A DNA stretch of 64,000 nt, taken from Chiloscyllium plagiosum (taxonomy: Eukaryota). Of this stretch, positions 463 through 33,685 are shown piece after piece; positions within the stretch are counted from its first letter, which is position 1; every line of letters begins with the position of its first letter. Where the stretch lies: contig NC_057718.1 in assembly GCF_004010195.1 (NCBI RefSeq), positions 69,773,213 through 69,837,212 on the forward strand, in the 5' to 3' direction. The notes below the pieces were generated by a model. The model ran no database searches. It saw only the letters and a program-made list of their open reading frames with translations, and had not been told where the DNA came from. The translations under genes and the position numbers were made by a program.

Positions 463-535
463 GATCCTAGAAAGGCTTACCACTACTCAAAGATGACTTT
501 TGCAAGCAAAATGTCTAGGAGTGTACAGTTTTATT

Positions 536-545
536 TCGTCACCAC
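536..545 (-). promoter_or_regulatory. Primer-binding-site-like motif of the Gypsy element
   Basis: Minus strand ...TTATTTCA|GTGGTGACGA directly after the LTR terminal CA; same junction on the plus strand near 48883 (TTATTTCAGTGGTGACAA). Confidence 0.55.
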
Positions 546-667
546 TGAAATAACTCCATGAAGGCCGGTATCCCATCACCAAGTCACCCTTAATTTATAT
601 TTGCTCAGTACATGTAGCTGGCTCAGAGCCAATCCCGAGAGTGAACGTAAACTCTGACACTCCTGTT

Positions 668-765
668 TATTTATTTTTTTCTTTTCTTTTTCTTTCAGTT
701 TCTACCACTAGGAAGAAAAGAAACACTCAAGTGGCCAGTGACAAGCAATGCCCTTCACATCAAAA
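668..765 (-). mobile_element. Tx1-clade LINE 3' UTR fragment (array unit 1, more diverged)
   Basis: Matches the 3' UTR at about 59160-59235 (GTGGCCAGTGACAAGCA..GCCCTTCACATCAAA), with a poly(A) tail. Confidence 0.8.
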
Positions 766-775
766 CACTCCTGGT

Positions 776-1094
776 TTTTTTTGTTTGTTTTTTTCTCTTC
801 TTTTTTTCAACAGGCCCTTCGGCCCAACAAGTCCACACTGACCCTTCGAAGAGTAACCCACCCAGACTCCTTTCCCTCTCACTAATGCACCGAACACCAT
901 GGGCAATTTAGCATAGCCAATTCACCTGACCTGCTCATCTTTGGACTGTGGGAGGAAACCGGAGCACCCGGAGGAAACCCACGCAGACACGGGGAGAATG
1001 TGCAAACTCTACACAGTCACCAGAGGCTGGAATCGAACCTGGGACCCTGGTGCTGTGAGGCAGCAGTGCTGACCACTGAGCCACCATGCTGCCC
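776..1094 (-). mobile_element. HE1 SINE with intact 5' end, truncated 3' tail and an atypical poly(A) tail (array unit 2)
   Basis: SINE body 809-1094 ends at GGGCCTGTT and is followed by about 32 nt of A-rich tail; flanked by target motifs at 766 and 1098. Confidence 0.85.
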
Positions 1095-1107
1095 TCACAC
1101 TCCTGTT

Positions 1108-1460
1108 AATTTTTAAAAATTTTTTGCTATACCAATTTCCATTTAATTAGTAGTAAGAAAAAGACTGAGGAATTAGTGACAGCTATTGCGTTTTCATACA
1201 GAAGGCACAGAATATCCCATATGACAGGGAATCACAGATTGCAGTCAGTTCAGTCACTCTCCCCCCACGGTGAGCCTGTCAAACAGGTACTCTCCCAGGC
1301 CATTCTCAGGGGCTCCCAATCTCTTCAGGTTGGTGATATGATCTCCCAGATTCTTGATCATCTTCACTTGCTTATCCAGGTAGTGTCCCTCCAGGAAGTC
1401 ACAAAGATGAGGGTCCATGTGGTCAGAGGAGAATTTGTGCAGATCCAGCAGACTCTAGTT
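1108..1460 (-). pseudogene. 5'-truncated processed ferritin (heavy/middle-chain type) pseudogene
   Basis: 1460->1254 translates [67 protein letters not shown], the ferritin C-terminus. No intron at DPH|LCDF; in-frame TAG at the conserved Gln; likely +1 G near the end (ancestral -GESD*). 3' UTR has ATTAAA at 1142-1147 and an A-rich tail at about 1108-1125. Confidence 0.93.
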
Positions 1461-1471
1461 ACACTCCTGTT

Positions 1472-3225
1472 TTTTTTTGCGGGTGTGAGACACAGTGAGA
1501 GACACAAGGTGTATGAATCTTTATTCAATTTCCACCACCAGGAAGATACACTCCTGTTTTTTTTTCTTCTTATTTTTTAACCCCCACACTACCGCCTAAC
1601 TGTGGTAGTGCTTATTTTTTCCCCAGCACCCATGGTGTGCGTGTGCAGGTGTGAGACACAGTGAGAGACACAAGGTGCATGAATCTTTATTCAATTTCCA
1701 CCACCAGGAAGATAGGAAAACACCCGGGTGGCCAGTGACAAGCACTCCCCTTCACATCAAAGGGCAGTGCTGTGTGATCAAACAGTGAGGGGGAGGGTAG
1801 GGACTAAATCAAAATAGAGTTGGAGGGAGAAATAATGCACTCCACTCCCTGCGGCGCCCACCTCTCCCTGAACAACTCCAGGGTGTTGGTGGACACCCCA
1901 TGCTCCTTCTCCAAGGACACCCGGGCCCTAACGTAACTGCGGAAGAGGGGCAGGCAGTCGGCACTAACGACCCCCTATCACTCCTGTTTATTTTTTAAAA
2001 TTTTTTTTCTTTTTCTTTTTCTTTCTTTTTTTTTCTACGAATCTTTATTCAAATTCCACTCCTATTTTTTTCTTTTCTTTTTATTGTGTATACGTATGAA
2101 ACACAGTGAAAGACACAAAGTGCACGAATTTTTTTATTCAATTTCCACCACCAGGAAGATAGGAAAACACCCGGGTGGCCAGTGACAAACACTGCCCTTC
2201 TCATCAAAGGACAGTGCTGTGTGATCAAAACAGTGAAAGGGAGGGTAGGGACTAAATCAAAATAGAGTTGGAGGAGAAATAATGCACTCCACTCCCTGCG
2301 GCGCCCACCTCTCCCTGAACAACTCCAGGGTGTTGGTCGACACCGCGTGCTCCTTCTCCAAGGACACCCGGGCCCTAACGTAACCGCGGAAGAGGGGCAG
2401 GCAGTCGGCCCTAACGAACTCCTATCACTCCTGTTTATTTGTTTTTTTTATTTTTTAATTTTTTTTTTCTTTTTTTTATATATATTTTTTTTCTTTTACA
2501 AAGTGCACGAATCTTTATTCAAATTCCACCACCAGGAAGATAGGAAAACACCCGGGTGGCCAGTGACAAACACTGCCCTTCACATCAAAGGGCAGTGCTG
2601 TGTGATCAAAACAGTGAAGGGGAGGGTAGGGACTAAATCAAAATAGAGTTGGAGGGAGAAATAATGCACTGCACTCCCTGCGGCGCCCACCTCTCCCTGA
2701 ACAGCTCCAGGGTGTTGGTCGACACCGCGTGCTCCTTCTCCAAGACACCCGGGCCCTAACGTAACTGCGGAAGAGGGGCAGGCAGTCGGCCCTAACGACC
2801 CCCTATCACTCCTGTTTATTTTTTTTTACTTTTTTTTCCTTTTTTACATTTTTTTTCCTTTTTTTTCTTTTTTTTTAAACCCCCACACTACCACCTAAGT
2901 GCGGTAGTGTTTATTTTTTTCCCAGCACCCATGGTGTGTGTGTGCAGGTGTGAGACACAGTGAAAGACACAAAGTGCACGAATCTTTATTCAGTTTCCAC
3001 CACCAGGAAGACAGGAAAACACCCGGGTGGCCAGTGACAAGCACTGCCCTTCACATCAAGGGACAGTGCTGTGTGATCAAAACAGTGAAGGGGAGGGTAG
3101 GGACTAAATCAAAATAGAATTGGAGGGAGAAATGATGCACTCCACTCCCTGCGGCGCCCACCTCTCCCTGAACAACTCCAGGGTGTTGGTCGACACCGCG
3201 TGCTCCTTCTCCAAGGACACCCGGG
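1472..3225 (-). mobile_element. Six 5'-truncated Tx1-clade LINE copies (1472-1548, 1559-1978, 1989-2056, 2067-2425, 2436-2806, 2817-3225)
   Basis: The longer units encode the ORF2 C-terminus (..DCLPLFRxYVRARVSLEKEHAVSTNTLELFRERWAPQGVECIISPSNSILI*) plus 3' UTR, matching 59046-59770. Confidence 0.85.
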
Positions 3226-3742
3226 AGCCGCTGTGTTTATGTGGTGAGTCTCGTTGAGTTACTGGTCAATGATAACCCCAAAAAGTCCGTGATAGTAACA
3301 CCATTAAATGTCAAGGGGAGGCACTGCAGCTAAATCTGGGGCCATCAACAAAACAAGAGACACCTGCTGAGGAGAAACCCACATCCAAAAGGACGTTAAT
3401 TGCCAGGCGCTGGGTGAAGGGGTACACTCTCAGAGATCTGCTTGCTCAGCAGCATGCAGCATATTCTGAGGCGATGGTGGAAGTTTGAGAGTGAGTCGTG
3501 TATTTACTCAAGCGGGGGTTTCTGCGGCACTGTGTGGAGGTTTAAATCAGTTACCAATTCCTGTTCCATTTCTTGTTTCATGATTGCTTACACACAACAA
3601 ACTAAACTGCCGACTGATACAATCCAGGCAGATTGAATTTATGTTTGAAGCATAAACCCTAAAAAGCACAATGATAAAGCCCGCTCTGTGTCATACATTA
3701 GACAATACCGTTACATACAAAAGTGCAGACAACATTCCTGTT

Positions 3743-4004
3743 TATTTTTTTTTTTTTTATTTTATTAAACAAGTTACAAAACAATTTACAAAAAACATTG
3801 ACAGCTGTACACAAAAGACAGCAGTTTTACAAGGGAGGGGAGCAGCAAAGCTAGGCCCCGAACCCTACCGTTCAACCATTTTACAGGGAGAGGAGGACAA
3901 ACCTCAAATCCCAGTTCCACATATGACAAGACAGTGACAATGACATTTGTACATTAGACAATACCGTTACATACAAAAGTGCAGACAATACAAACCCAGC
4001 AAGT
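3743..4004 (-). mobile_element. Second poly(A)-tailed 3'-end family ('family B'), probably a LINE 3' UTR
   Basis: Ends AATAAAATAAAA(A)n on the minus strand; related copy at about 60630-60856 and a short piece at 3694-3732. Confidence 0.6.
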
Positions 4005-4364
4005 CACTCCTGTTTATATTTGTTGGCCAAGGCTCCCTGATTGGCCCAGACCCAGTCCTAATCATACTCAATGAGATCCACCTGGCCAACCTCATGTCAA
4101 TCACTACAGATGACATTGTCATCCATAAACTAAAGTTCCACAAGTGATGCCAGTGTCATTTTCTTCTTGGATTTCAACCAGTTGAGGTTGAAAAGTTTTC
4201 TGCCCATCCTGTGGACAATTTCCACATACTGGGAAACTTGTTTTTGACGAGAAGAAAAATAGTGGCAATGAAAATGGAGAAAAGGGTGGGGTCATGATAT
4301 TTCTGTGCTTTATCCCTGTCTTGACCTCAAAGGATTCTGTAATATTACCGTCTTTAACATTGTA

Positions 4365-4715
4365 TAGAAATTTATAAAATCATGAGGTGCACAGATAGGG
4401 TGAGGAGAAAGGGCAGAGGAGTCTAAAACTAGAGTGCATAAGTTTAAGGTAAGGGAGCAAGATTTAAAAAGAACCTGATGGCAACTTTTTCATGCAGAGG
4501 GTAATGAGTGTATGCAATGAGCTGCCAGCAGAAATGGTGGACGTTGGTACAATTACAACATTTAGCTGGCACCTGGATGGGTACATGAAAAGGAAGGTTA
4601 TTAGAGGGATATGGGCCAAATGCTGTCAAGTGGGACTAGATTTATTTAGGATATCTAGTCAGCATGGATTAGTTGGACCAAAGGGTCTGTTTCTATGCTG
4701 TACTTCTCTATGACT
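4365..4715 (+). mobile_element. CR1/HER1-type LINE 3' end
   Basis: ORF2 end RVMSVCNELPAEMVDVGTITTF..HLDGYM, and 3' UTR ending CTCTATGACT. Confidence 0.8.
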
Positions 4716-4719
4716 TTAC

Positions 4720-5990
4720 CATCTTGTTGTGGTGGAGATATGAGATGTTCATGAATTTCACTGGACAGCTGATCTTTGATAGCATTTTCTATCAAGCTTC
4801 CAAATTGTGTGAGTCAAAGCCTTGGTTAAGTTGATGAAAGCCATGTAGAGTGGTTGGGGTTGTCCCTGGCATTTTTCTTGGAGTTGTTGAGTAGTGAAAA
4901 TTATGTCCATTGTTCTACAGTCTGGTTGGAAATAATACCGGCTTTCAGGAAGTATTTCCTCTGAGTCTGGGAGAAGGCACTTAGCAAGGATTCAGCCAAT
5001 GTAGAGTAGAGGGATTCCTCAGTAGTTTCCATGTTCCATTTGATTCCCCTTTTGAAGATAGTGGTGATGGCAGCATCCCTGAAATTGATAGGGATTTCTT
5101 CATTGTCCCAAATTTTCAGCAACAGTTGTTGGAGAAGACTGATAATATCTCCGCCTGCCAGTTTGAAAATCTCCTCTGGAATCTAGCCTACTCCTGCAGC
5201 TTTTCCATTCTTCATTTGTCGAATGGAGGATTCAGCTTCTGCCACACTCAGTGGGATTCCAAGGTCACCTTTGACTGGGGGGAGGATTTCCTCAATACCA
5301 TTTCCAAAAGTATTCTCTCTATTGGAAGCTTATTTTTTTTCTCTGTCTCTCAAAAGGATGCTTCCTTACTCTTCACCAATTTGAGGCCAAATATATTAAG
5401 TCTGTATATTGCCTTGGTAGCACTGAAGAAACCCCAGGTGCTATGCTTGTCAGCAAGGAGTTGCAGCTCTTAGCTTTCTCTGTTCACCACTGGTTCTTGA
5501 TTTCCCTAGTTCTTTTGTGTAACTCTACCTTTCTACTTTGAGTTCTCCTCTTTGTCTCATTGGTGGTGGTGTTTTGCCAGGCACAGAGAGCTGTCCTCTT
5601 TTTTTCTGAGGTCTTGATAAGTTCAGTCTTGGTCTTGGTGTTTCCTGGTCTTGTTACAGCATAAGATGATGGTTGTTTTTATCTCTTTCCAGATTTTCTT
5701 CACTTTAATAAAATGAACTCTGTGGAAACTTTGGTGAAGATATTCTTGGAAGCTCGCTAGTTTGCATGGCTCTTGAAGCCATTCAATCTGAGCTTTTATC
5801 TGAACCGTTTCTTCATCTTCAACTGCCTTTGTTAGCATTTGATGGACATTGAGGAGCAGATGAGCCAATGTAACTGTCCAGTCGTCCAGTTTCTCTATCA
5901 ACTTAGTGTCAACACATTCCATCCAAACTTTATCCATCACTCTGCCCTTACACCTATAATGGCAACACACCCAGCGTTCACTCATGACAG
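4720..5990 (-). mobile_element. Decayed RTE-like LINE (RT N-terminal region and upstream linker)
   Basis: KIWDNEEIPINFRDAAITTIFKRG motif and nearby AFINLTKA(FD); many stops and frameshifts. Confidence 0.6.
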
Positions 5991-6724
5991 ACCTCAGGAC
6001 ATGTGCTGAGATAAAATTATATCAATTTCCAAGTGTCTGTTGTGAACTTGACTCTCCTTAAAAAGAAAACATTCATACTTTGGGGAAAGAAAAGCATTCA
6101 ATACATTTAATTTTCTTGAACTCCACATTATCTTTTAACCACAGGCATTTAATTCAAATGCATAATGCTTTGAGTTGCAAATCACAATTCACTTTAAAGA
6201 GTCTACCATTAAGAGCTGTAAACCGATATATGAAAAACAGGCACCATACTGTGGTGATGTTTGGTTATGAAATTATGTAGTATCAATATAGCAATGACAG
6301 CCCTCAGGTTTACTTCAACAGACAAAATGTAAAAGCAAGCAGTGACTATTTTCAAACACTCCAAATGTATTTTCAAAAATTTGAAGAGCTAAAATTTTAA
6401 ATCCATTGTCACTTTTGCAATTTCCTTTTGACAGGTTCAATGCATAGCACAGTTTAAAACATTAATGTCTACTTAATGACCTTCCACAAAAACCACTTGA
6501 ATTCTCTTAAAACCACTTGAATTCTCTCAGGTTCAAATTCAAAAGGGTATTTTTTTATTCTCCAAAAGGACACCCTGGCTATTCAAACTGATTTGGAAAA
6601 TTCAGAGCTGCTGCTATGAGATCTAATCTATTTACTTGTTGTTTTAGGTAACCAGGTTTCCAGAATCACACAGGAGTGAAGGCAGTGGCTGATTTGTATC
6701 TGGCAGTAGGCACTATGTACCAGA

Positions 6725-7195
6725 AATAACACTTGAAAAGATTCAGAAAAGATTTATACGGATGTTGCCAGGGTTGGAGGATTTGAGCTATAGGGAGAAG
6801 TTGATTAGGCTGGGGCTGTTTTCCCTGGAGCTTCAGAGGCTGAACGGTGACCTTATAGAAGTTTATAAAATCATGAGAGGCATGGATAGGGTAAATAGAC
6901 AAGGTATTTTCCCTGGGGTGGGGGAGTCCAGAACTGGAAGGCATACGTTTAAAGTGAGAGGGGAAAGATATAAAAGAGACCTAAGGGGCAACGTTTTCAC
7001 ACAGAGGGTGGTATGTGTGGAATGGGCTGCCAGAGGAAGTGGTGGAGGCTAGTACAATTGCAACAATTATATGAATAGCAAGGGTTTAGAGGGATATGGC
7101 CTGGGTGCTGGTAGGTGGGACTAGATTGGGTTAGGATATCTGGTTGGCATGGATGAGTTGTACTGTACATCTCTATGACCCTATGACTCTGTGAC
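6725..7195 (+). mobile_element. CR1/HER1 LINE 3' fragment
   Basis: MLPGLEDLSYREKLIRLGLFSLELQRLNGDLIEVYKIMRG; (CTATGAC)n tail. Confidence 0.88.
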
Positions 7196-7529
7196 ACTCT
7201 TATTAAAACCCCTATGTAAACAGCAAATATCGCATTCAGAGATGAAACTTTGACCACACCTGTATTTAGTGTACTGCATAGACTTCAGTAATGATCAATC
7301 ACTCACTTGACATTCATTTTTCATACACCTCATGTATAGTTCAATCATGATTTTCAGGTGTACCTGATAGAAACCTACTGTAATACACCAGTGATGGTGT
7401 CTGTTCAACTCTTTGTGTCTGCATAAGTACTTTTGACTCCTCTCGTGACATGTTTGGGGCATGTTTAGTGGAAAAGATTGATTTGGCAAGTCTGCAATAC
7501 AGACGTAATGTAACACTAAAATCAAAGAG

Positions 7530-9775
7530 ATGCATATGCTGAAAATCTGAAACAAAAACAGGAAGTGTTGGAGAAACTCAGCAGATCTGACAGTGTTTAT
7601 ACAGAAAGAGAAACAGAGATAAGTCCAGTGACCCTTTGTCAGAACTGGAAATAGCTGGCAGACCGTGATATTATGATGACAACAGAGTGGGGAGAAGGGG
7701 TTAGTGACAATCAATGAAGTACATGGAGACAGTTCCCAGATAGAGAGACAGAGAGAAAAAGAGAAAAATGATAGGCAAACAAAGAGATTGTTGGTGATAA
7801 GCTGACAGAGAGATTAATGCAGTGGAGGCTGCAAATGAGTTAGCTGTGCTGGAAGCAATACATAAAAACCAAGACCTAAGGGTGTTGGGAGGGAGGCTAA
7901 TGAACCTGGAGCAGGGTGTTCACATTCTGAAATAGTCCTGAAAGGTGGAAGGACCTCAGCGAAAGATGACATGTTGTTCTCCAGCTTGCATTGAGCCTCA
8001 CTGGAGCACTGAAACAGGCCTTAGACAGAACTGTTGACATGGGAACACTGTTTTGTTGAAGTGGAAGGCAACTGGAAGTTAGGGTCATTTTTACAGACAA
8101 AGTGTAGGTGCTCAGCAAAGTGGTCAATCAGATTGTGTTTTATCTCCCTCGTGTACAGCAGGCCACATTGTGAGCAGCAAATACCGTAGACTAGATTGAA
8201 TGAAGTGCAGATAAATTGCTGCTTCACTTGGAAGTTTTTTATGGGTCCTTACAACATGGGGTAAACCCCTCTGCTAATTTAAAATAGCAACACAGAAAAG
8301 ATTCACACCATGCTGTAAGCTGTTAAAATTCAAGAGGCAAAGAACTATCCCGACAGTCATTATGTAAAGTAAAAATTATCAACTTTATCTTTTTTAAGTC
8401 TAACAGAGAATAATTAACTAACAACTATTTACAACTCATTTCTCTAAATCTATCTTTTACCTTCCCCTCTACAATACTGGTCTGATAGAAAAAAATCCTG
8501 ATTACAATTTTTAAAAAAAATCATGTTTCAAAATCAGTCAGCTTAGCCGAGTGTCCTCTGTAGATTTTCCTCTGTCTTCTTTTCTTCTTCTTAGGGATCC
8601 TGCCTCACAGATAGATAAAGGTACCTTTAAGAGAGCAGTTCAAACTGTGTGACATTTATACACCAAAACATTGGATTGCTTCATTGGTTAATATTGTCAA
8701 AATACGAAACTCAAACTTGATTGGAGATTGGTGTCTTGAGGTATAATTTAAACTGATTGATTTATTTTTGTGTCCAGGCAACACATCTCTTAGCTAGTTG
8801 TTGGACCAAATGTTGCAATGTTACTTTGTTCAGAAAACTGTGCTAGCCAGATATTTCACTCCCTTAAAGGTACAGTACACCCACAACTTCATAACAATAG
8901 TGAGGAGAGAGTAAGTAAACAGATAAATGTTATATTTTCTGTGATTGCATGGAAAGGTGCCATGGCCATGTGGAGAGGTGCTCAGAGTGGAGGAGAAGTG
9001 GATCAGGGTGTCCTGGAGAAGGCAGTTCCTATGGAATGCTGACAAGGGAGGTGAGGGGATTATGTATCTGTTGGTGGCATCCCACTAGAGGTGGTAGAAA
9101 TAGTGGCTTATGATCCTTTGGACATGGAAAGCTGGTAGGATGGAAATTGAGGACTGGAGGACCCGGTCATGTTATAGGAGGGAACAGGTTGAGGGTAGAA
9201 GTACCGAAAATGGCTCATATATAGCTAAGGACCATGTGAACCACAATGATGGGTAATCCATGGCTTAGGAAAAAGTTGAACATTTCAGAGGCTGTCTGCT
9301 AAAAATGACATTATGAGAACAGATGTGACATAGACAGAGAAACTGGAAGAATGGAATGGAGTCCTTACAGAGTGCAAGAATATATCATCAATATGAATGT
9401 GGGAGTTAACGGGATTGGATTGAATATCGGTGACCAGCATATCCCCAGAAATGAAAACACAGATGTCAAGGAAGGAAAAGGATGAGTGAAAAATGGACCA
9501 GATGAAGGTGAGAGTGGGCAAAAATTGATTAAATCTTCCAGTTCTGGACAAGAAAGAGTGCAGCTTCAGTTAGATCATTGATGAGACAGTGACAGAGCAA
9601 AGTATGATTGCAACAAGGAATGTTTTATGAAAACTCCCAAAAAGACAGACATAACTGGGACCCATGTAGGTAGCCTTGGCTAAAACTTTGATCTGAAGAA
9701 AGTGCAAGGAGTCAAAGGTGAAGTTGTTCAGAATGAGGATGAACTTCATCAGGCAGAGGAGAGTGGTAGCCCTCT
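7530..9775 (-). mobile_element. Decayed Penelope-like element (RT plus GIY-YIG), interrupted at about 8250-8896
   Basis: FICTSFNLVYGICCSQCGLLYTREIKHNLIDHFAEHL (GIY-YIG-like) and FSFLDICVFISGD (PLE RT-like). Confidence 0.7.
8250..8896. mobile_element. Solo-LTR-like insertion within the Penelope-like relic
   Basis: About 650 bp block splitting colinear PLE sequence and ending CATAACA; no clear TSD seen. Confidence 0.35.
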
Positions 9776-10139
9776 ACACACCCAACCCATTAAGATGATC
9801 TGAAGACTCTCTGCTCCTTTCATGAGAAAGTCTGAACAGTCCCCACTCACCCCCAGCTCCTCTACCTGTCTGAGCTCATCCTCACTTTAAACAAACTTTG
9901 TCTTTAGCTCCTCTTGCTTTCTTCAGATCAAAGGGGGTACCCACAAGGGGATACTCACAAGGCTCCCAGTTATATCTGTCTCTTTGTGGGGTACATGGAA
10001 TATGCCTTATTCCAGTGCTACTCAGGTCTCCCTGCAAACCTTTCTCATCACTGACATCATCTGTGCTGCTTCCATCTCTAATCCAGAACTGGAAAAAATT
10101 ATCCATCGTCACACAGTCCATTGCTGATTGTTCCGTCCC

Positions 10140-11180
10140 CCTCCTTGTCAATCAATAAAAATAAATCAATAAGAAGCAATTTTAATGTTACATAAAGAGA
10201 AAGCAGTGGTCAGATGCAATGTTGGCTCACTGAAGAGTGAAAGTGGGGATAATGCCAATAACTATGGGGAAATGACAGACACATTAAATAATTACTTTGC
10301 CTTGTTATTTATAGCATACAAAGAAGGTAGCTTGCCAGACGACCTGAGAAAATTAATAGTAGATTAGGAACAGGGACTAAATAAAATTAACAGAAGTAAA
10401 ACATCAATAATGAAAAAGATTAAAGGAATGAATGAGTGGTAAATCCAGAGGACCGGGTAGTTTCTATCCATTGATGTTAAAAAAAAGTAGGGGAGCACAC
10501 TGTAGTTGCCATACCTATAATCTTTCAGAGTTCCCTAGATTCAGTTCCTCTGGTTTGGAAATTTGCACATGTCACTCTGCTTTTTACAAGGGCCAAAAGA
10601 GGAAAGCCAAGGAATTACAAATCAGTTACCCTGACATCTGTGGTGAGAAACTTGTTGGAGTCTATAATCAAGGATGGGGTAATTGAACACCTTGAAAATT
10701 TTGGGTTGATCGGAAGGCTCCACAATGGATTCATGACAGGTAGGTCATGCCTGACAAACCCATTGGAACTTTTGAAGATGTGACTAAGTTAGTAGACAAG
10801 GGATGTCAAATATGTTGTTTATATGGACTTTCAGAAAGCATTTGATAAAGTCCCACATAAGAGACTGCTAACTAAGGTAGGAATCCAATGGAATTGAGGA
10901 TAAATTACCAACAGAGCTAGGAACTTAGCTGAGTAGCAGGCGACATAGAGTAGGAATAATGGGTGGGTACTCAGATTGGCAGGATATGACTAGTGGTGCT
11001 CCACAGGGTTTATGTTAGTGCCTCAATTGTTCATATTATTTATTCGTGACTTGGATAATGGCATAGAAAGTCATATATCCAAGTTTGCTGATGACACAAA
11101 ATTAGGTGGCATTTTAGATAGTGTAAATGATAATATAAAATTACAAAGGGATATTAATAGATTAGATGAATGGGTAAGTT
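10140..11180 (+). mobile_element. Decayed CR1 LINE ORF2 (RT)
   Basis: YMDFQKAFDKVPH-like segment; LFILFIRDLD..ISKFADDTKLGG. Confidence 0.8.
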
Positions 11181-11199
11181 CAGAACAGGTTCAGAACGG

Positions 11200-11780
11200 T
11201 TTTGAAGAAGAGTCACTGGACTCAAAACATTAACTCTGCTTTTTCTCCACAGATGCTGCTTGACCTTCTGTGTTTCTCTGGAAATTTCTATTTCTGTTTT
11301 GGATTTCCAGCATCTGCAGTTCTTTTCCTTTATTATTCTCTATTTCAAGTCTGCTTCAGTGTTCCAGTAAGACTCAATGCAAGCTGATGGAACACATTCA
11401 GGGCTCGACATTGACTTTAACAATTTCAGAACATGAACTAGAACATGTTCATTATTCTTCCCCACAGATTTAAGTCCTGTGTGCTTGGGTTGCTCCCAGC
11501 ACAGCCAACTCATTATCAACCATTTACAATTCTAGTCAGCACCTTAACCAGCATTTAACACTCTCTCAGCTTATAATCAGCATTTTCAGTTTGTCTATCC
11601 CATTTTTTCTCTCTCTGTCCATTCTCCCCACACTTCCTAATAACACCGCTATGTCATCAGAATGAATCCCACCATTTCCCGGCTATTTCCAGTTCTGACA
11701 AAAGACATTGGACTCAAAATATTTCTCTACAAATTCTGCCAGACCTGCTGAGTTTCTCTAGCACTTTCTATTTTTGTTTG
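11200..11780 (+). mobile_element. Penelope-associated terminal-repeat fragments
   Basis: Two degenerate units of the GAAGAGTCACTGGACTCAAAACATTAACTCTG..CAGATGCTG type. Confidence 0.5.
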
Positions 11781-11949
11781 AAGTGATGGGTGAGGGTGGA
11801 TTTCAACTTGTCCAAAATATTACTCACGCAAAAGTCAAGCCTTGACTTTTTGACAGAAAAAATTGTCTTAGTAACTTAATTTTATATGAATATAAATGGC
11901 AAATTGCTATTGCATGAACAGAGTTCCAATCTTTTACCACACAATAGAC

Positions 11950-13150
11950 AGCTATTGTAATTTCTCTGTAACATTTTGATCTTGCCCTTGAACTGGATTG
12001 TCTGCCTAATGATAATACTTTTACCAATCAACCCTTATTTGGTTTCCTTAACATTGTGATAACTTAAGTCATAACATGCCTTAGCCATCTAGATTTTAGG
12101 GAGTGCAACCCTAGTTTGTTTAATTTCTCTTCGTAATTTAACCCCTGAGGGTTCAGACATCATACTCGTAAATTTGCCCTGAACTGTCTCTAAGATTAAA
12201 ATATCTTTCTTAAAGTGAGTTGGTCAGGACAGCTCACTGTACTCCAGATGTAGTTTAGCCAGGGCTCCTGTATTCAACTTTTCAAAATATGAAGAGCAGC
12301 ATTCCATTGAACGTTTTTCTCATATCATCTGTACCTGTTTATGACATTTTAAGACTTGTTTACAGATTTTTACGTTGCTGCAGGAGGCCTTCATGCCTTC
12401 AGCCCATCATACCTGCACCAACACTCTGAGCATTTTAACCTAGAGCCAATCTTTTGTCTCTTCACAACAATCCTACATACTATTTCTATTGAAATTATTA
12501 TCTAATGCCCTATTGAGTGCCTCAGTTGAACTTACCACCACCTTGTCTCGAAGACAGTATATTCCAGATCTAAACTACTTACTGTGTGAAAAAGATTTTA
12601 CTGACCTACCATTTGCTTCTTTTGCAAATCATTTCAAATTATACTTTTTGATTCTCAATCCATGTACAAGTGTAAACAGTTTCCGCCATGAACTCCATCC
12701 AGACCCTTTATGATTTTGAAAATTTATTTTGAAAACTTCTTAGTCTACTCCGGTCCAAAGAAAACAGTCCTGACTTCTCCAATCAATCTTTATAACAAGA
12801 TTCCCTTGGAACCATTCTCCAATGCATCCACAAACTTCCTTTATGTGGTGCCCAGGACCATATATGATACTGTAGCTAAGGTCTACTTAGTGTCCTACAT
12901 AGGTTCTTCAACACTCCCTACTCATGTACTGTATGCTTCTATTTATGGAGCCTAAAATCTACCATGATTTAACAATGCATTTAAATGGATTCCCAAGTCT
13001 TTTTAAACTTCCATTTTTCCAGCTTTTCACCAGTTACACATATCCCTGTCTATTCTTTTTTTGATCCAAACATGATGATCTCACATTTGCCTACATTGAA
13101 ATACATTTTCTATGTTTTTCCATTTAATTAATCTATCAATAAATCTTTAT
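11950..13150 (-). mobile_element. Old nested CR1-like LINE fragments
   Basis: Reverse-complement matches to CR1 ORF2 C-terminal motifs; heavily decayed. Confidence 0.5.
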
Positions 13151-13609
13151 TACATTTAAGCTTCCATCTAAACTGACTACACTATTGTTTGATATTCACT
13201 CCATTCTAGTCTATTTAACATTTGTCCCATGTTTGATTCCTCATATATTTGAATTTTTCTTTTGAATGCTCTTTCACATACAGTGCATCACAATTTGTAT
13301 GTGAGCAAACCCAAAAGTCAATATGTACACACTGGATTGAGATTGTGACTAATTATTCCGTAATAAAAACAGAATGTGCTGGAAAAGACACCATGGATCT
13401 GGAGAAGCAATAAAAAGATCGGTATTCATAAAATGACTCAAGCAATTCAATGGCATTGCCATCACTGAATCCCACACTATCAAGTTCCTAGGGGCTTACA
13501 GTTGATCAGAAACTAAACTGGATCTTCCATTTGAATTCTGAGGTTATGAGAATTTGTCAGAGGTAAGAAATCTTGGTGAGTAATTTATGTGCTAACTCCC
13601 CAGAGCCTG

Positions 13610-14450
13610 TATTGGATTACACAGTGGAAGATGTGTCTAACCTACCAAGGAAGCAAGAATGACGTAAGGATACGATGGGAGATTAGGACTTCAATTCAAT
13701 TGTTATCACTAAATGGGTAATGTTGAGCAAACTTGAGGGTCTAAAGGTAGATAGGTCCCCTGATCCTGATGGAATGCCTCCCAGCGTTTTGAAAGAAATG
13801 GGGGAAGTTATAATTAATGCATTAGTGGTAATTTACCAAAATTTACTGGACTCCAGGTAGGTCCTAGCAGACTGGAAGACAGCGAATGTCACACCGCTGT
13901 TTAAAAAAAGGTGTAGGCAAAAGACAGGTGATGACAGGCCAGTTAGCTTAACATCTGTAGTCGGGAAAATGCTGGAGGCAATCATTAAAGAAGAAATAGT
14001 GAGACATCTGGATGGAAAGGGTTTCTTCAGGCAGACGCAGCATGGATTCAGGAAGAGAAGATTGTGTTTGACTAACTGGAGTTCTTTGAGGATGTAACAA
14101 GCATGGTAGTTGGAGGAGAACAGGTGGATGTTATATACTGGGATTTCTAGAAGGCATTCGATAAGGTGCTGCATAAAAGACTCATCTATAAGCTAGGAAT
14201 GCATGGAATTGCAGGGCATGTATTAACATGGATAGAGGACTGGTAAACCAATAGAAAGCAGAGAGTTGGGATAAATGGGTGTTTCTCTGGTTGGAGATCA
14301 ATGGTGAACGGCGTGCCACAGAGGTTGGTGGTTGGGTCTGCAACTGTTCATGACATATATATAAATGATTTGGAAGAGGAGACCGGGTGTAACCTGTCCA
14401 AGTTTCTGATAACACTAAATTGAGTGGAAAGGCAAAATTTGCAGAGGATG
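13610..14450 (+). mobile_element. Decayed CR1 LINE RT region
   Basis: DWKTANVTPLFKKxCRQKT..RPVSLTSVVGKMLEAIIKE; VIYxDF*KAFDKV. Confidence 0.8.
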
Positions 14451-14534
14451 GGTACAATTGTATCCCTGTATTTGAATGCACATGACAATAAAACTTAATG
14501 CTAATTCAGGCATTTGTGGAGTAATTTCCTAATG

Positions 14535-16940
14535 ATAGGAACAGGAGTAAACCATTTGGCCCATTGGGTTTGGTCTGCCATTCATTAAGATCTTGGCTGA
14601 TCTTTCCATCATCTCAGCTCCTCCTACTTCCATGATCCCCATAACCCTTAATTCTCCTACCATGCAAAATCCCATCCAACTCTGTCTTGAATATATTTAA
14701 TGAAGCTGCCTTTGCTGCTTCCTTGGCCATGGAATTCTATAGATTCTCTGGGAAAAGCAGTTCCTCCTCATCTCTGTCATAAATCTACTCCCCTTAATCT
14801 TGAGGCCATGTTGGTCTTAGTCTCACCAACCAGCGGAAACAACTTGTCTTCTATTTTACTTACCTGACTCTCTCATAATTTTATATGTTTCAAAAGAACA
14901 TTCTTCTAAATTCGAGCAAGCACAGTCCCAGGTGGCTCAAGCTCTCATTGTAGGGTAACCCCTTCATCTCAGGAATCAACCTGGTGAACCTCTTCTGCAC
15001 CACCTCCAAATTCAGTATATCCTTCCTCAAGTAAGGAGATCAGAACTGTGCACAATACTCCAGGTGCGGCCTCACCAACACCTTGTATAATTGCAGCAGA
15101 ACCTCCCTGCTCTTAAATCCAATCCCCCAGCAATGAAAGCCAATATTTCATTTGCCTTCATGATTACCTGTTGCACTTGCAAATCAACTTTTAGCAATTC
15201 ACGTACAAGCACTCCCAAGTCCCTCTGCACAACTGCATGCTTCAATCTTTCACCATTTAAATAATGCTTTAACCTACTATTTTTAATTCAAAGTGGACAA
15301 CTTCACATATAGCAATATTGTACTCCATCTATTAGACCCTTGCCCACTCACATAACCTATGTAAATCTCTCTGCATGGAAAAAGGACTCCAAATATCCAT
15401 TCAACCCGTGCTCATAATTTTGTAAAATTCTACCAGACCACCACTCAACTTCTGGCATTCAAGTGAAACAAACTAAGTTTGTCGAATGTCATCTCATAGC
15501 TGTCATTGTCCAAACCAGGCAACATCCTGGTAAACTGTATCTCTACCTTCTACAAAGCTTCACGTCCTTCTGGCAGTGTGGTGACCAGAACTGTACACAA
15601 TATTCCAAATTCAGCCTGACAAACATTCAATAAAGCAGCAATATGACTGATCAAGTTTTATACTCTGTGCCGTGACTGACACGGGCAAGCATGCCATGCG
15701 CCTTCATGATCACCTTTCTGTGGACCTGTACAATTAGATCTCTTTGTACATTAATGCTTTGAAAGATACTTGTGTTTACTTCTTCCTTCATGCATTAGAC
15801 CTTCCAAAATGCATCACATTGCATTGGCCCAGATTAAATTCCGCCTGCCATTTCTGTGCCCAAGTCTCCAGCCTATCTAGTTGGTGGGTCCAACAAAGGC
15901 AGCGATGAGATGGTGGAGGTTTCTCTTTCAGTTACTGGAGGCAAGGTGCAGGAGTGGACTGGGTTGGAAAGACTGCTATCCTGAATTTTTTAATTTCTTT
16001 ATTTCACTAATTTATTCCTATGATATGTGAAGCTGGACTTTTTATTTTTTTACTTTTCTAATTTGTTTTCCCTAAGAATTTGTTCTTAAGAATTTGTATC
16101 TCGGTAGCTTTGTACCACAGATGGCACTATAATGTGGCGACTTGTGAACTTTTCATTGTATTCATTTGAGTACATGTGACAGTAAAGTTAATTTGAATAT
16201 CTATATCCTACTGTATCCCCCAGCAATCATCCTCACTATCTGCAGCTCCCCCAGTCTTTGTGTCATGCACAATTTTACTATCAGACCACTTACATTCTCC
16301 TCCTTACATTACAAATGTGCTACGGAGAGCAGAGGTCCCAGCACGGATCCTGTAGAAAACCAAAAGTCACATATCTCCAGTCAAAAAGACACCCTTCCAC
16401 CACTACTCGCTGCCTTCCATGACCAAGCAGTTTTGTATCCGTTTTACTAGCTCACCGTGGATTCCATATGCCTTCACTTGCCCTCAATCATCTTTTTCAC
16501 TTCTTCAGAAAAACTAAATCAAGTTTGTGAGAAACGATTCCCCCCACACTAAGTCATGCTACCTATTGCTGTTAAGTCCATACAAAGAACATTCTCCAGT
16601 AATTTCCCTTCCACTGATGTAACGCTCATCAGCCTGTAATTTCCAAGATAGTCTCTGTAGCCCTTCTTAAACAAAGGAACATCATTGGCTGCTCTCCTCT
16701 GGGACCTCTCCTATGATTAAAAAGGATACAAAGATTTCATACAAGATCCCAGCAATCTCCTCACATGCCTCGCCCAGTTTTCTGGGTAAGATCCCACAAG
16801 TCCTAGGGACTTGTCTACCTTAATGCTTTTCAAAACACTCAACATCACCTCCTTTTTTCAACATGCCCTGGTTTATCAACATGGCCCTCTCTAAATTCAC
16901 CATCCACTATGTCCTTCTCCTTTGTGAATACCAAGGCAAA
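14535..16940 (-). mobile_element. Two adjacent decayed CR1 LINEs (about 14535-15375 and 15400-16940), with an unrelated insert at about 15880-16200
   Basis: Reverse-complement matches to LVRPHLEYCAQF and to RT-region CR1 motifs. Confidence 0.65.
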
Positions 16941-16959
16941 GACTCATTAATAAGCACAC

Positions 16960-17262
16960 CCAAGGGGTGGGGAGTCCAAAACTAGAGGTCACAAGTTTAA
17001 GGTGAGAGGGGATATATTTAAAAGGGACCTGAGGGACAACCTTTTCACACAGAGAGTGGTGCATATCTGGAATGAGCTGCCAGAGGAAGTAGTAGAAGCT
17101 GGTACAATTATAACATTTAAAAGACGTTTGTACAGGTACATGAATAGGAAAGGTTTACAGGGATATGGGCCAAATGTAAACACATGGGACTAGTTCACCT
17201 TAGGAAACCTAGTCAGCATGGACAAGGTGGGCCGAAGGGCCTGTTTCCATGCTGTATGACTC
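16960..17262 (+). mobile_element. CR1/HER1 LINE 3' end
   Basis: FTQRVVHIWNELPEEVVEAGTIITFKRRL. Confidence 0.85.
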
Positions 17263-17500
17263 GATAACAATAAATTCTCTCCTTTGTCCTTGAGGGGACC
17301 CCCTAGCATTTCCTGAGCTACTGCCGTGCTCCTTATGCAAGTATAAAATATCTTGCGGTTTTCCTTCATCAAGTTTGCCATGGAAATTTCATAGCCCCTA
17401 ACTCTTTGCTTTTGTTCTTCCCTGACTTCTTTTTGAGGACTGTCTGTCTTCAGTTTCCTAAACTGTCATAAGCCTCATCTTCTTTTTTGACTAAGCTCAC

Positions 17501-17736
17501 TGAAATAATTCCACACAGGCCAGTATCCTATCTCCAAGTCACCCATTATTTACATGTGGAGAGTTCTTGACATCGATCCAGCTCCCTAAGAGCCAGCTGC
17601 CAGAGTAAACAGGAAGTCTGACACTCCTGTTCTTATCTGTCATCCAGGGCTACCTAATTAGACCAGGTTAACAGTCCCAACTAGGGAACTCATATTCTAT
17701 GAGGTCCACCTGGCTGACCTCATTACAATCACTACA
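17501..17736 (-). mobile_element. Uninterrupted Gypsy 3' LTR (same family as 546-4108) with an empty target site
   Basis: Preceded on the minus strand by a polypurine tract GGGGGAAGGA (17737-17746); single CACTCCTGTT at 17622. Confidence 0.82.
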
Positions 17737-17914
17737 TCCTTCCCCCTGTGAGTTTGAGGACATCGACCAGTTCTTTGTAGCTTCTTCTCGGGCATTTCAC
17801 CACAAAGTCAGGTTCCTCCAATTCTGGCTCTGGTATTGGTGGTGTGTAGAGAACATTTGCTCTCTTCTTGTGCCCAGAGCATTTCAGAAGAAATGAATTC
17901 TCCTCTTCAGGCGG

Positions 17915-19378
17915 CAAAACATTCAGCAAGGCATTTGATAAGGTTTCCCATGGTAGGCTCATTCATAAAGTCAGGAAGTATGGGATACAAGGAGATTTGG
18001 CTATCTAGATTCACAAGTGATTGGCTGACAGAAGGTAGAGAGTGATTGTAGATGGAAAGTATTTTGCCTGGAAGACAGTGTTGAGTGGTGTCCCGCAGGG
18101 CTCTGTTCTTGAGCCTCTGCTCTTTGTAGTTTTTATAAATGACTTGGATGAGGAGGTTGAGTGGTGGGTTAATACATTTGCTGATGACATTAAGGTTGGA
18201 GGTGTCGTCGATAGTGTCTAGGGCTATTGCAGGCTGCAGCACAACATAGACAGGATGCAGAGCTGGGCTGAGAAATGGCAGATGGAGTTCAACCTGGATA
18301 AATGCGAAGTGATGCATTTTGGAAGGTCGAACTTAAATGCTGAATATAGGATTAAAGACAGGATTCTTGGCAGTGTGGAGGAACAGAGGGATCTGGGTGT
18401 GCAAGTACATAGATCCCTCAAAGTTGCCACCCAAGTGGATAGGGTTGTTAAGAAAGCATTCATTGGCTTTCATTAACAGGGGATCGAGTTTAAGAGCTGC
18501 GAGGTTTTGCTACAGCTCTACAAGTCCCTGTCGAGACCACACTTGGAATATTGTGTCCAGTTCTGGTTGCCCTACTATAGGAAAGATACAGAGGCTTTGG
18601 GGAGAGTGCAAAGAAGGCTTACCAGGCTGTTGCCTGGACTGGGGGGCTAGCCTTATAAGCTCGAACTTTTCTCTCTGGAGAGAAGGAGGAAGAGAGGTGA
18701 CCTGATTGAGGTATACAAGATATTGAGAGGAATGGATAGAGTCAATAGCCAGAGACTTTTTCCCAGGGCACGAGTTTTAAGATATTAGGAGAAAGGTATA
18801 GAGGGGTGGCTTTCATTAACAGGGGATCGAGTTTAAGAGCTGCGAGGTTTTGCTACAGCTCTACAAGTCCCTGTTGAGACCACACTTGGAATATTGTGTC
18901 CAGTTCTGGTTGCCCTACTATAGGAAAGATACAGAGGCTTTGGAGAGAGTGCAAAGAAAGCTTACCAGGCTGCTGCCTGGACTGGAGGGCTAGCCTTATA
19001 AGCTCAGACTTTTCTCTCTGGAGAGAAGGAGGAAAAGAGGTGACCTGATTGAGGTATACAAGATATTGAGAGGAATGGATAGAGTCAATAGCCAGAGACT
19101 TTTTCCCAGGGCACGAGTTTTAAGATATTAGGAGAAAGGTATAGAGGGGACGTCAGAGGAAGGCTCTTTACACAGAGTTGTGAATGCATGGAATGCGTTG
19201 CCAGCTGTGGTGGTGGAAGCAGAGTCATTAGGGACATTTAAGTGACTGCTGGACATGCACATGGATAGCAGTGAGTTAAGGTTGCGTAGGTTATTTTATT
19301 TTACATTAGTATTAACCCTTGGCACAACATCGTGGGCTAAAGGGCCTGTTCTGTGCTGTACCTTTCTATTCTCTATCC
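17915..19378 (+). mobile_element. CR1 LINE 3' portion with an internal 343-bp tandem duplication
   Basis: QSWAEKWQMEFNLDKCEVMHFG; 18464-18806 repeated as 18807-19149. Confidence 0.88.
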
Positions 19379-23330: not shown

Positions 23331-23640
23331 CGGTGGCACAGTGGTTAGCACTGCTGCCTCACAGCACCAGAGACCCGGGTTCAATTCCTGACTCAGGCGA
23401 CTGACTGTGTGGAGTTTGCACATTCTCCCCGTGTCTGTGTGGGTTTCCTCCGGGTGCTCCGGTTTCCTCCCACAGTCACAAAGATGTGCGGGTCAGGTGA
23501 ATTGGCCATGCTAAATTGCCCGTAGTGTTAGGTTAAAGGGGTAAATGTAGGGGTATGGGTGGGTTGCGCTTCGGCGGGTCGGTGTGGACTTGTTGGGCCG
23601 AAGGGCCTGTTTCCACACTGTAAGTAATCTAATCTAATCT
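23331..23640 (+). mobile_element. HE1 SINE (young)
   Basis: A/B boxes (GGTTCAATTCC) and (CTAAT)n tail; closely matches 40912-41233. Confidence 0.88.
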
Positions 23641-32448: not shown

Positions 32449-33685
32449 AAGGTCCTCACCCTTAACAATTTCTCCTTCGAATCCTCCCACTTCCTCCAGA
32501 CCAAAGGGGTAGCCATGGGCACACGTATGGGCCCCAGCTATGCCTATCTCTTTGTTGGCTACGTAGAACAGTCGATCTTCCGTAATTACACTGGCACCAT
32601 TCCCCACCTCTTCCTCCGCTACATTGATGACTGCATTGGCGCCACCTCATGCTNNNNNNNNNNNNNNNNNNNNNNNNNNNNNNNNNNNNNNNNNNNNNNN
32701 NNNNNNNNNNNNNNNNNNNNNNNNNNNNNNNNNNNNNNNNNNNNNNNNNNNNNNNNNNNNNNNNNNNNNNNNNNNNNNNNNNNNNNNNNNNNNNNNNNNN
32801 NNNNNNNNNNNNNNNNNNNNNNNNNNNNNNNNNNNNNNNNNNNNNNNNNNNNNNNNNNNNNNNNNNNNNNNNNNNNNNNNNNNNNNNNNNNNNNNNNNNN
32901 NNNNNNNNNNNNNNNNNNNNNNNNNNNNNNNNNNNNNNNNNNNNNNNNNNNNNNNNNNNNNNNNNNNNNNNNNNNNNNNNNNNNNNNNNNNNNNNNNNNN
33001 NNNNNNNNNNNNNNNNNNNNNNNNNNNNNNNNNNNNNNNNNNNNNNNNNNNNNNNNNNNNNNNNNNNNNNNNNNNNNNNNNNNNNNNNNNNNNNNNNNNN
33101 NNNNNNNNNNNNNNNNNNNNNNNNNNNNNNNNNNNNNNNNNNNNNNNNNNNNNNNNNNNNNNNNNNNNNNNNNNNNNNNNNNNNNNNNNNNNNNNNNNNN
33201 NNNNNNNNNNNNNNNNNNNNNNNNNNNNNNNNNNNNNNNNNNNNNNNNNNNNNNNNNNNNNNNNNNNNNNNNNNNNNNNNNNNNNNNNNNNNNNNNNNNN
33301 NNNNNNNNNNNNNNNNNNNNNNNNNNNNNNNNNNNNNNNNNNNNNNNNNNNNNNNNNNNNNNNNNNNNNNNNNNNNNNNNNNNNNNNNNNNNNNNNNNNN
33401 NNNNNNNNNNNNNNNNNNNNNNNNNNNNNNNNNNNNNNNNNNNNNNNNNNNNNNNNNNNNNNNNNNNNNNNNNNNNNNNNCCTATCACCTTCATCCCCTC
33501 TCCCACTCACCTATTGTACTCTATGCTGCTTTCTCCCCACCCCCACTCTTCTCTCACTTATCTCTCCACCCTTCAGGCTCTCTGCCTTTATTCCTGATGA
33601 AGGGCTTTTGCCCGAAAGGTCGATTTTACTGCTCCTTGGATGCTGCCTGAACTGCTGTGCTCTTCCAGCACTACTAATCCAGAAT
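32449..33685 (+). mobile_element. Penelope-like element RT fragment spanning an assembly gap
   Basis: QTKGVAMGTRMGPSYAYLFVGYVEQSIF..LFLRYIDDCIG; terminal repeat with hammerhead motif at about 33590-33625. Confidence 0.82.

Follow-up and report, generated by a model that had tools for sequence, protein, structure and literature searches.

Site-specific LINEs and tandem insertion arrays

The Tx1 clade of long interspersed elements (LINEs) is known for its site specificity (PMC4494074). In Xenopus, the element Tx1L inserts at one site of Tx1D (PMC1950540 and PMC4494074, citing Garrett 1989 and Christensen 2000), and the Tx1L endonuclease nicks almost only its own site in vitro (PMC1950540). The crocodilian families of the clade insert in Mariner-N4 and Harbinger and, as described for Tx1-8_Crp and Tx1-4_AMi, in 'specific groups of LTR retrotransposons', the LTR being the long terminal repeat (Kojima 2015, PMC4494074). 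For the crocodilian Tx1/SINEU, a 16-bp duplication was reported, together with tandem inserts 'sandwiching a TSD' (target-site duplication) that were read as sequential insertion, and the partner short interspersed elements (SINEs), which are non-autonomous, were described as moved in trans, with template switching that adds foreign 5' pieces (PMC4494074). The R1 array of Drosophila melanogaster carries identical 33-nt target duplications between its units (Roiha 1981, as given by McGurk and Barbash, 10.1101/158386), and has been explained by a double insertion that unequal exchange then expanded (10.1101/158386). The present work concerns a stretch of 64,000 nucleotides of the Chiloscyllium plagiosum genome (NC_057718.1, positions 69,773,213 to 69,837,212, forward strand), hereafter the window, in which a stack of A-tailed inserts separated by copies of a short motif lies within an LTR at window positions 658-4014. 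Very probably, a LINE family of the Tx1 clade uses one site of this abundant LTR, which is about 235 bp long, for target-primed reverse transcription, and so builds mixed stacks.

The likeness to the crocodilian Tx1/SINEU, as described, extends to a transposon-targeting Tx1 LINE, tandem inserts around a duplication, partners moved in trans and template switching, while the host and the target sequence are different, as is the LINE family, and the present stacks reach at least 10 units, among which are a cellular mRNA, a pre-tRNA and an ordinary SINE. With Xenopus Tx1L, the window's LINE family shares the use of one site of another transposon, and the Xenopus protein is its closest named relative (53% over 801 amino acids); the target there is, however, a DNA transposon and here an LTR, and the specificity of the present family is read from sequence alone. 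R1 is likewise a site-specific LINE with tandem copies split by target duplications, but it inserts in the 28S rRNA gene, with arrays made up almost entirely of R1, whereas the LTR targeted here is dispersed in thousands of copies and its arrays contain unrelated RNAs. The products of L1, which lands at short TTTT/A sites that are very common, are consequently scattered, unlike the present ones, which gather at one 14-bp site. Common to both are the A-tail-dependent mobilisation in trans, the 5' truncation and the template-switch chimeras that are known from L1 processed pseudogenes and U6/L1 chimeras (PMC4494074).

The phenomenon is, accordingly, already known from the crocodilian Tx1 families and fly R1, and the present case is a further example, notable for the variety of its RNAs. 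The original prediction, made from the window's letters without any search, knew of no description of this target in sharks. In the literature searched, with Repbase and Dfam outside the search, no account of this LTR target or of the target specificity of a cartilaginous-fish Tx1 was found; the phenomenon itself is in print for the crocodilian families (PMC4494074).

The motif-separated stack

The exact motif CACTCCTGTT occurs eight times in 658-4014, always on the + strand (at 658, 1098, 1462, 1549, 1979, 2426, 2807 and 4005), and a ninth time in the window at 17622. These nine occurrences are to be compared with 0.27 expected by chance in the whole window, and none of 100 shuffles reached nine. 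Three further copies in the stack are one step away from the motif, namely CACTCCTGGTT at 766 (an extra G), CACTCCTATT at 2057 (G to A) and CATTCCTGTT at 3733 (C to T), which gives eleven separators and ten intervals, the numbers proposed at the outset. A T-rich run, equivalent to an A-rich tail on the minus strand, follows directly after the motif in all ten intervals, and every recognisable insert of the stack lies on the minus strand, which bears out the earlier description of minus-strand inserts with a poly(A) tail abutting the motif.

The sequences at both sides of the stack belong together. In a self-comparison of the window, 543-667 and 4005-4108 align to 17498-17631 and 17622-17736, respectively, at 71% identity, and the overlap between the two alignments is the motif itself. 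The flanks therefore match both halves of 17498-17736, and the stack interrupts one copy of a repeat that is intact at 17.5 kb, so that its removal restores a single LTR like that at 17501-17736, as had been claimed. The stacked LTR and the LTR at 17.5 kb are not the paired ends of one element. The motif is the core of a target-site duplication of 13-14 bp. The observation of a motif-separated stack is confirmed as real, the array being read from the genome assembly alone.

Site specificity across the genome

The central claim, that this motif of this LTR family is specifically targeted, was examined with 29 LINE 3' ends outside the window, the best-scoring of at least 794 candidates in the genome (loci are given below as L numbers). 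In this sample, the junction-flank test that had been proposed for all genomic copies showed enrichment of the motif. Within 100 nt of the tail, the 10-mer with at most one mismatch was present at 11 of the 29 loci, against 0.5% of random 100-nt windows and none of the 29 on the opposite strand; with at most two mismatches, the numbers were 19 of 29, against 5% of random windows and one of 29 on the opposite strand. The other end of the inserts gave a similar picture: at the 5' truncation junctions of the LINE, the motif with at most two mismatches was found at 37 of 78 (24 loci), the rate at random positions within those loci being 1.8%. LTR pieces accompanied the LINE at 15 of the 29 loci and were co-oriented with it in all 15, and the LTR halves that flank stacks overlap by 14 bp (L014, L019) or 15 bp (L004). 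Stacks, that is, several co-oriented LINE pieces, were present at 18 of the 29 loci on many chromosomes, each with its own composition. Units in one orientation, split by target copies that match the local target, are the arrangement of the known site-specific LINE arrays.

The copies of the motif at a locus follow the LTR in which they stand. Locus L028 repeats its own variant GATACTCC eleven times, and own variants are also present at L007 (CCACTCTATTTAT), L023 (ATCCCATG), L006 (ACACTCCCC) and L024 (CACTTCTG), where they run into the right half of the locus's own LTR. A second filled LTR in the window likewise has an insert flanked at either end by its own variant, ACCTTCCTCTTTAC (59032-59045 and 60858-60871). 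These local variants and the thousands of empty LTRs that bear the motif show that the motif is a target and not the element's terminus. Genome-wide, 3905 empty sites were counted at two mismatches or fewer, at least 474 of them perfect, against none for a control with the reversed pattern. Right junctions at which all four preceding bases were unlike the LTR numbered 70, of which about 8 resemble an LTR deletion variant. With correction for chance agreement, the filled sites come to about 200, to be set against the 474 perfect empty ones; the count of filled versus empty sites that had been suggested thus gives, roughly, one in three to four preferred sites as occupied.

The target LTR

The targeted LTR is about 235 bp long and has at least 5694 candidate copies in the genome, the best 30 of which are 84-87% identical to the copy at 17.5 kb. 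On the + strand of the window the copies start with TGAAATAAC and end with CACTACA; the ends of the LTR are of the TG..CA type. Among the best 30 copies, the right flank is pyrimidine-rich, i.e. a polypurine tract on the other strand, in 11, while in 6 a common left flank, which reads GTGGCGATGAG... on the other strand, corresponds to the side of the primer-binding site (PBS); the flanks of the other 13 are unrelated at either end. From the TG..CA ends and the flanks of polypurine and PBS-side type it follows, therefore, that the family is an LTR with its sense on the minus strand of the window, the same as that of the inserts. In the LTR sense, the site stands in the context ...CCAAT...CAGAT|ATAAACAGGAGTGT|CAGAC..., at a TATA-like box near the U3/R border.

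The attribution of the LTR to Gypsy was the less certain part of the earlier claim. Short sense-strand open reading frames (ORFs) beside LTR copies gave Pfam matches to RT_RNaseH (E 2.6e-20 and 2.3e-15) and then, nearer the 3' LTR, to the integrase core rve (E 7.5e-9, 1.1e-5 and 6e-5), with RT_RNaseH at 3025-3243 and rve at 2147-2455 in L046, and RNase H at 3006-3203 and rve at 2424-2654 in L051, on the LTR sense strand. The order from RNase H to integrase is shared by Gypsy, retroviruses and BEL/Pao and is not that of Copia. The target element is likely Gypsy-like by this order, its Gypsy identity not being proven; the LTR nature stands by the TG..CA ends, the flanks and the pol order, and the superfamily is only made likely. 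A search of the PDB with the RNase H fragment, which is short and decayed, gave nothing significant (Ty3 at E 0.9), and an Atlas search with it returned only the Pfam family again, by which Gypsy and other retroelements are not separated. The 24 ORFs of at least 80 amino acids in window 4100-17500 gave nothing relevant in Pfam, nor did Pfam find a pol domain in the 33 ORFs of at least 110 amino acids beside 16 LTR loci, only the shorter ORFs having given pol matches.

The stacked LTR is a 5' LTR, because the PBS-side flank common to other copies is present at its left, and its interior extends leftward beyond the window. Its R/U5-side part lies at 546-656 (minus strand, like all features of the stack), and its U3-side part, with CCAAT-like and TATA-like boxes and the + strand end ...CACTACA, at 4018-4108. 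The empty LTR of the same family at 17501-17736, also on the minus strand, is a 3' LTR with a polypurine-tract flank from 17737 and an unoccupied site at 17621-17634. The 10 kb upstream of the window (locus L068) contain a homologous interior with an RNase H match (E 4.8e-9) and a 3' LTR-type copy with the polypurine-side flank at L068:4026-4256, which bears an empty site, AATCTCCTGTTTATATCTGTCAG. It is not certain that the LTR of L068 belongs to the same element as the stacked LTR: the pairing is based on the flank type and the interior RNase H match, the two LTRs are 68% identical, and no clean element duplication was found. If the two do pair, one LTR was filled ten times and the other never, in keeping with insertion after the LTR element had integrated.

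The Tx1-clade LINE

At L075, an ORF2 stretch of 801 amino acids without a stop is 53% identical over 100% of its length to the Xenopus 'Transposon TX1 149 kDa protein' YTX2_XENLA (E 3e-257, 874 bits). The named relatives that rank next are again 'TX1' or 'YTX2' proteins, and among solved structures the ORF2 scores 178 bits with human L1 ORF2p and 72 bits with R2. An endonuclease of the APE type (Exo_endo_phos, E 7.5e-12, L075:3493-4590, minus strand) and a reverse transcriptase (RVT_1, E 1.6e-36, L075:1163-3565, minus strand) were matched in L075, with a single frameshift that separates the two ORFs. The window itself contains the end of ORF2, 164 amino acids (59279-59770, minus strand) that are 48% identical to the C-terminus of the Xenopus Tx1 ORF2 (E 6e-33). 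Locus L063 is a nearly full-length, decayed copy that shares the 3' end of the LINE of the stack; its reverse transcriptase is 50% identical to that of Tx1, and it is 87-92% identical to L075 at the nucleotide level. By sequence similarity, the LINE is assigned to the Tx1 clade, and the Tx1-family enzyme that had been predicted agrees with the 801-residue ORF2 stretch, the ORF2 end in the window, the reverse transcriptase and the presence of both domains.

At the C-terminus of ORF2, the zf-RVT match scores 21.5-22.8 bits, under the cut-off of 27.5, and the C..C..H..C residues align with those of the Tx1 C-terminus. As to ORF1, the decayed copy L063 has a CX2CX4HX4-like stretch at L063:3820-4266 (+ strand), with no Pfam match.

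The inserts and their passengers

The original prediction took the stack for a record of RNAs handled by the enzyme, and a ferritin mRNA, a SINE and a 244-bp element were found among its inserts, all ten of which lie on the minus strand. The first copy of the target-site duplication, 657-670, reads ACACTCCTGTTTAT on the + strand and ATAAACAGGAGTGT in the sense of the LTR and LINE. Insert 1 (671-765) consists of an A-rich tail and a 71-bp 5'-truncated 3' piece of the Tx1 LINE (694-764), and is followed by the degenerate motif at 766-776. Insert 2 (777-1097) is a SINE (809-1097) that starts from its head and has, in place of the usual SINE 3' tail, an A-rich tail; the motif at 1098-1107 separates it from insert 3 (1108-1461), the 3' end of a processed ferritin mRNA with 66 codons, the stop, a 3' untranslated region with ATTAAA and the tail, closed by the motif at 1462-1471. 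Insert 4 (1472-1548) is again a tail with a 71-bp LINE 3' piece, with the motif at 1549-1558.

The LINE pieces of the stack are co-linear with 59063-59446 at 86-95% identity, and the ORF2 end there reads on the minus strand. Insert 5 (1559-1978) comprises a tail and a LINE 3' end (1594-1974, equal to LINE positions 12-395) with the junction ...GACCCCCTAT|CACTCC and the motif at 1979-1988; insert 6 (1989-2056) is a long tail with a LINE scrap of about 20 bp, joined through a CAC microhomology to the degenerate motif at 2057-2066. LINE 3' pieces with the 5' junction of insert 5 make up inserts 7 (2067-2425, LINE at 2085-2417, motif at 2426-2435) and 8 (2436-2806, LINE at 2498-2802, motif at 2807-2816), and inserts 5, 7 and 8 are all LINE 3' ends cut at LINE position 391-395. 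Insert 9 (2817-3732) is a three-part chimera of a LINE 3' end (2894-3225, cut at 346), a 468-bp segment (3226-3693) and 39 bp (3694-3732), before the degenerate motif at 3733-3742. Insert 10 (3743-4004) is a full-length, young copy of the 244-bp poly(A) element (3746-4004) with AATAAA and a pure tail of 15 nt. The last copy of the duplication (4005-4017) runs on into the U3 side of the LTR. A search of 500-4200 with Rfam and ARAGORN gave no credible RNA family or tRNA.

The ferritin match at 1257-1454 (minus strand) is above the Pfam cut-off (Ferritin, E 8.4e-6). The insert is continuous over an exon junction at which the gene copies of contig C39 are interrupted by about 265-320 bp, and, as it is unbroken there, it is a processed copy. 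The ferritin gene cluster comprises at least 12 tandem copies at G000:C39:4.62-4.72 Mb, and several intron-less ferritin copies are found on other contigs.

At least 1843 candidate copies of the 244-bp element are present in the genome, the best 40 of which are full-length and 97-99% identical. Several copies stand in tandem, and at least 12 of the copies listed run through the motif into the right half of the LTR; the element behaves as a non-autonomous partner of the LINE. The possibility that the 244-bp element and the 468-bp segment are deletion derivatives of the LINE was rejected, as neither matches the near-full-length LINE copies.

In insert 9, the LINE part with the 468-bp segment is found also at two other loci at 99-100% identity, with homology that ends exactly at 3693, so that the composite (window 3100-3693) is present on three contigs (the others at G000:C17:1502863-1503456 and G000:C24:15677820-15678413). 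The 468-bp segment is non-repetitive except for its first 95 bases or so, which are a common repeat, and the 39 bp at 3694-3732 equal nt 17-55 of the 244-bp element. The simplest reading of this structure would be a composite RNA copied to its 5' end, with a subsequent template switch onto the RNA of the 244-bp element, and the identity of 99-100% among the three composite copies points to a very recent retrotransposition.

Further passengers were seen outside the window. In a stack at L011:2687-2824, a tRNA-Met (2745-2816, minus strand) with a 5' leader, a 3' trailer ending in a T run and an A tail stands between two copies of the motif, and resembles the retrocopy that a primary polymerase III transcript, a pre-tRNA-Met, would leave. 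At L022:1152-1455 and L030:1056-1260, short A-tailed copies of the LTR R region start right at the motif; the first, which also holds a palindromic insertion of about 190 bp, ends about 22 nt past the AATAAA of the LTR, and the second ends earlier, after about 60 nt. These R-region copies suggest that LTR transcripts may start at or inside the 14-bp site.

The second filled LTR of the window, also on the minus strand, has its R/U5 side at 58903-59045 and ends in its own site variant at 59032-59045. The Tx1 LINE 3' end that follows (59046-59770) consists of the tail, the 3' untranslated region and the last 164 codons of ORF2, and is cut off by the N gap at 59771-59961. An older copy of the 244-bp element at 60629-60857, 91% identical and 5'-truncated, adjoins the second site copy (60858-60871), after which the U3 side of this LTR continues to 60974. 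The sequence at 59962-60628 in the same locus has neither an A tail nor the motif at its two ends.

Proposed mechanism and alternative explanations

According to the mechanism that is favoured here, the endonuclease would nick the + strand of the window after ...CCTGTTTAT, a position given by the junctions only, the predicted substrate being a duplex that carries CTGACACTCCTGTTTATATCTGTCAG. The T-rich 3' end would then prime on the A-rich tail of the RNA, and a cut of the other strand about 14 bases away would leave the insert between two copies of the site. The sequence shows that the site is duplicated, and so later inserts land beside earlier ones in the same orientation, which gives the stacks. 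From the mixed nature of the inserts, the enzyme probably accepts A-tailed RNAs in trans, such as those of the 244-bp partner, mRNAs, the SINE and pre-tRNA transcripts, and may switch templates at RNA 5' ends, with chimeras as the product. Stacks also grow by the copying of whole units, either through unequal exchange or through the re-insertion of unit transcripts, between which the data do not discriminate. The overall mechanism that the original prediction had outlined, a Tx1 LINE with a specific LTR site that is regenerated by its duplication and captures RNAs, is supported with qualifications. Nothing in the analysis pointed to a benefit of the stack for the host.

Several observations weigh against this mechanism or limit its reach. 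The LINE loci are the top-scoring matches and not a random sample, and the units within a stack are not independent, so that there were fewer events than the junction counts suggest. Of the 29 LINE copies, about 6 have no recognisable motif at the tail, and targeting is therefore not absolute. The second filled site in the window, ACCTTCCTCTTTAC, differs at 4 of 14 bases, from which it follows that the 14-mer alone does not define recognition. The shared junctions and filler described below imply, moreover, that whole units are also copied and that much of the array growth is copying and not new capture.

A more far-reaching version, which is doubtful though worth stating, holds that the 14-bp site is the transcription start region of the LTR, so that inserts would not only land in the stack but also be launched from it, the promoter-less passengers being transcribed from an upstream site copy and re-inserted. 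Every insert would therefore stand directly behind an LTR promoter, and, if this were true, the site-derived 5' bases would guide the precise junctions of the 244-bp element and of the truncated LINE tails. Additions would be polar, and the stack a dated record, if recognition depended also on the U3-side flank, a flank that is conserved at the window's divergent second site. Either way, the enzyme would write any A-tailed RNA into a defined 14-bp DNA site.

Among the rival explanations, the one that survives best, improbable as it is, supposes that one or a few insertions were multiplied by unequal crossing-over or replication slippage, with no real role for targeting of a regenerated site; it has a precedent in the explanation given for the R1 arrays of Drosophila (bioRxiv 10.1101/158386). 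Units 5, 7 and 8 of the window share the 5' junction ...GACCCC+CTAT+CACTCC, including the same four filler bases, while their 3' ends differ, and units 7 and 8 have in common substitutions that seldom occur in 29 genome copies. Truncation points with the same filler recur also within other loci (218 six times in L028; 159 three times, with a fourth at 161, in L007; 481 three times in L006), and the same truncation point recurs inside L017, L014 and L023. Units 5, 7 and 8 are, however, 91.7-94.9% identical to each other, no closer than unrelated genome copies (mean 93.5%), and their copying is therefore old. At least seven inserts, moreover, are not copies of each other, namely the two LINE tips, the SINE, the ferritin, the LINE cut at 395, the chimera cut at 346 and the 244-bp element, and they differ in age, as judged by identity to genome copies, which is 99-100% for the chimera and 98-99% for the 244-bp element but 91-94% for the LINE units. 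Heterogeneous inserts of differing ages therefore require repeated insertion, and the copying of whole units is left as an addition to it, for which unequal exchange is the ordinary explanation and re-insertion of unit transcripts the alternative. The claim that each duplication regenerates the site and that inserts so accumulate is borne out by the heterogeneous inserts, with the reservation that part of the growth is whole-unit duplication.

The comparison of the stack with a CRISPR-like record holds to a lesser extent. The site is duplicated and mixed RNA inserts do pile up, but no age order was found along the stacks: left units were 88.4% (n=17) and right units 90.6% (n=25) identical to the 29-copy panel, with no significant trend (p=0.24), and the within-stack rank correlations were mixed. 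The two youngest inserts of the window both lie at the U3 end, which is a single case. The comparison is, accordingly, a metaphor only.

Some LINE tails with identical 5' junctions appear to be common to loci. At L025:1424-1454 and L028:264-306, which are on different contigs, a LINE scrap has the same truncation (178), the same private substitutions and the same variant of the motif (..ACAT|TGCTGTTT), so that a spread of truncated units from locus to locus is possible, as is a duplication that relates L025 and L028.

Very improbable is an origin of the motif in the 3' terminus of the LINE itself, which the original prediction had named as a refuting outcome, or in a tag of read-through RNA. 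As a terminal tag would, it adjoins the tail of most LINE copies, but it is also present in thousands of insert-free LTRs, flanks ferritin, SINE, tRNA and 244-bp inserts without LINE sequence, stands at the variable 5' truncation points of the LINE and is repeated at each locus in a variant of its own that matches the right half of that LTR. The element's own end is, by the empty sites, the local variants and the 5' junctions, excluded as the origin of the motif. An assembly artefact of the window stack is given equally little weight: the region is composed of repeats and the window has two N gaps, one of them within the second filled locus, yet the units of the stack differ by 5-8% and in their tails, 18 of the 29 other loci have stacks of their own composition, and the unique junctions, from SINE to ferritin and from ferritin to LINE tip, are unlike the products of collapse or expansion. 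Least likely of all is a capture of A-tailed RNAs by the LTR element's own reverse transcription at the U3/R border, in the manner of retroviral transduction and with no LINE enzyme, with which the position of the inserts near that border, their LTR sense and the R-region retrocopies of L022 and L030 would agree, but by which both LTRs should be filled, although the candidate 3' LTR of L068 is empty (at only 68% identity to the stacked one), and which does not account for inserts that are mostly LINE 3' ends, 5'-truncated and flanked by 14-bp duplications, which is the signature of target-primed reverse transcription, in a clade known for site specificity (PMC4494074).

Significance

The Tx1-clade LINE family of the window offers a clear example, abundant and probably recent, of a LINE living within another retroelement, recent activity being concluded from the composite that is nearly identical at three loci and from the best copies of the partner element. 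With thousands of dispersed targets, the occupancy, the site tolerance and the growth of arrays are countable in one genome. The combination of a site-specific enzyme with a relaxed choice of template would place copies of mRNA, pre-tRNA and SINE at the same 14-bp address. Site-specific retroelement enzymes are under study as tools to write RNA-encoded sequence into chosen DNA sites, and an enzyme that needs only an A-rich tail on its template and a short DNA site would merit a bench test. For annotation, such stacks carry the risk of being mistaken for satellites, new composite repeat families or misassemblies.

Other features of the window

A partial copy of the targeted LTR family lies on the minus strand at 48825-48891 (84% identity to 538-604). 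The decayed reverse transcriptase of another non-LTR family is found at 17850-18400 on the + strand (RVT_1, E 1.5e-5 and 1.8e-3); it begins about 115 bp past the empty LTR and shortens the interior of that LTR element. Two runs of N are present, at 32654-33480 (827 bases) and 59771-59961 (191 bases). The tRNA-headed SINE family has at least nine further copies in the window that are 72-85% alike (52-327, 23332-23611, 40912-41197, 49675-49995 and others), and the copy at 52-327 carries the usual non-poly(A) tail of the family.

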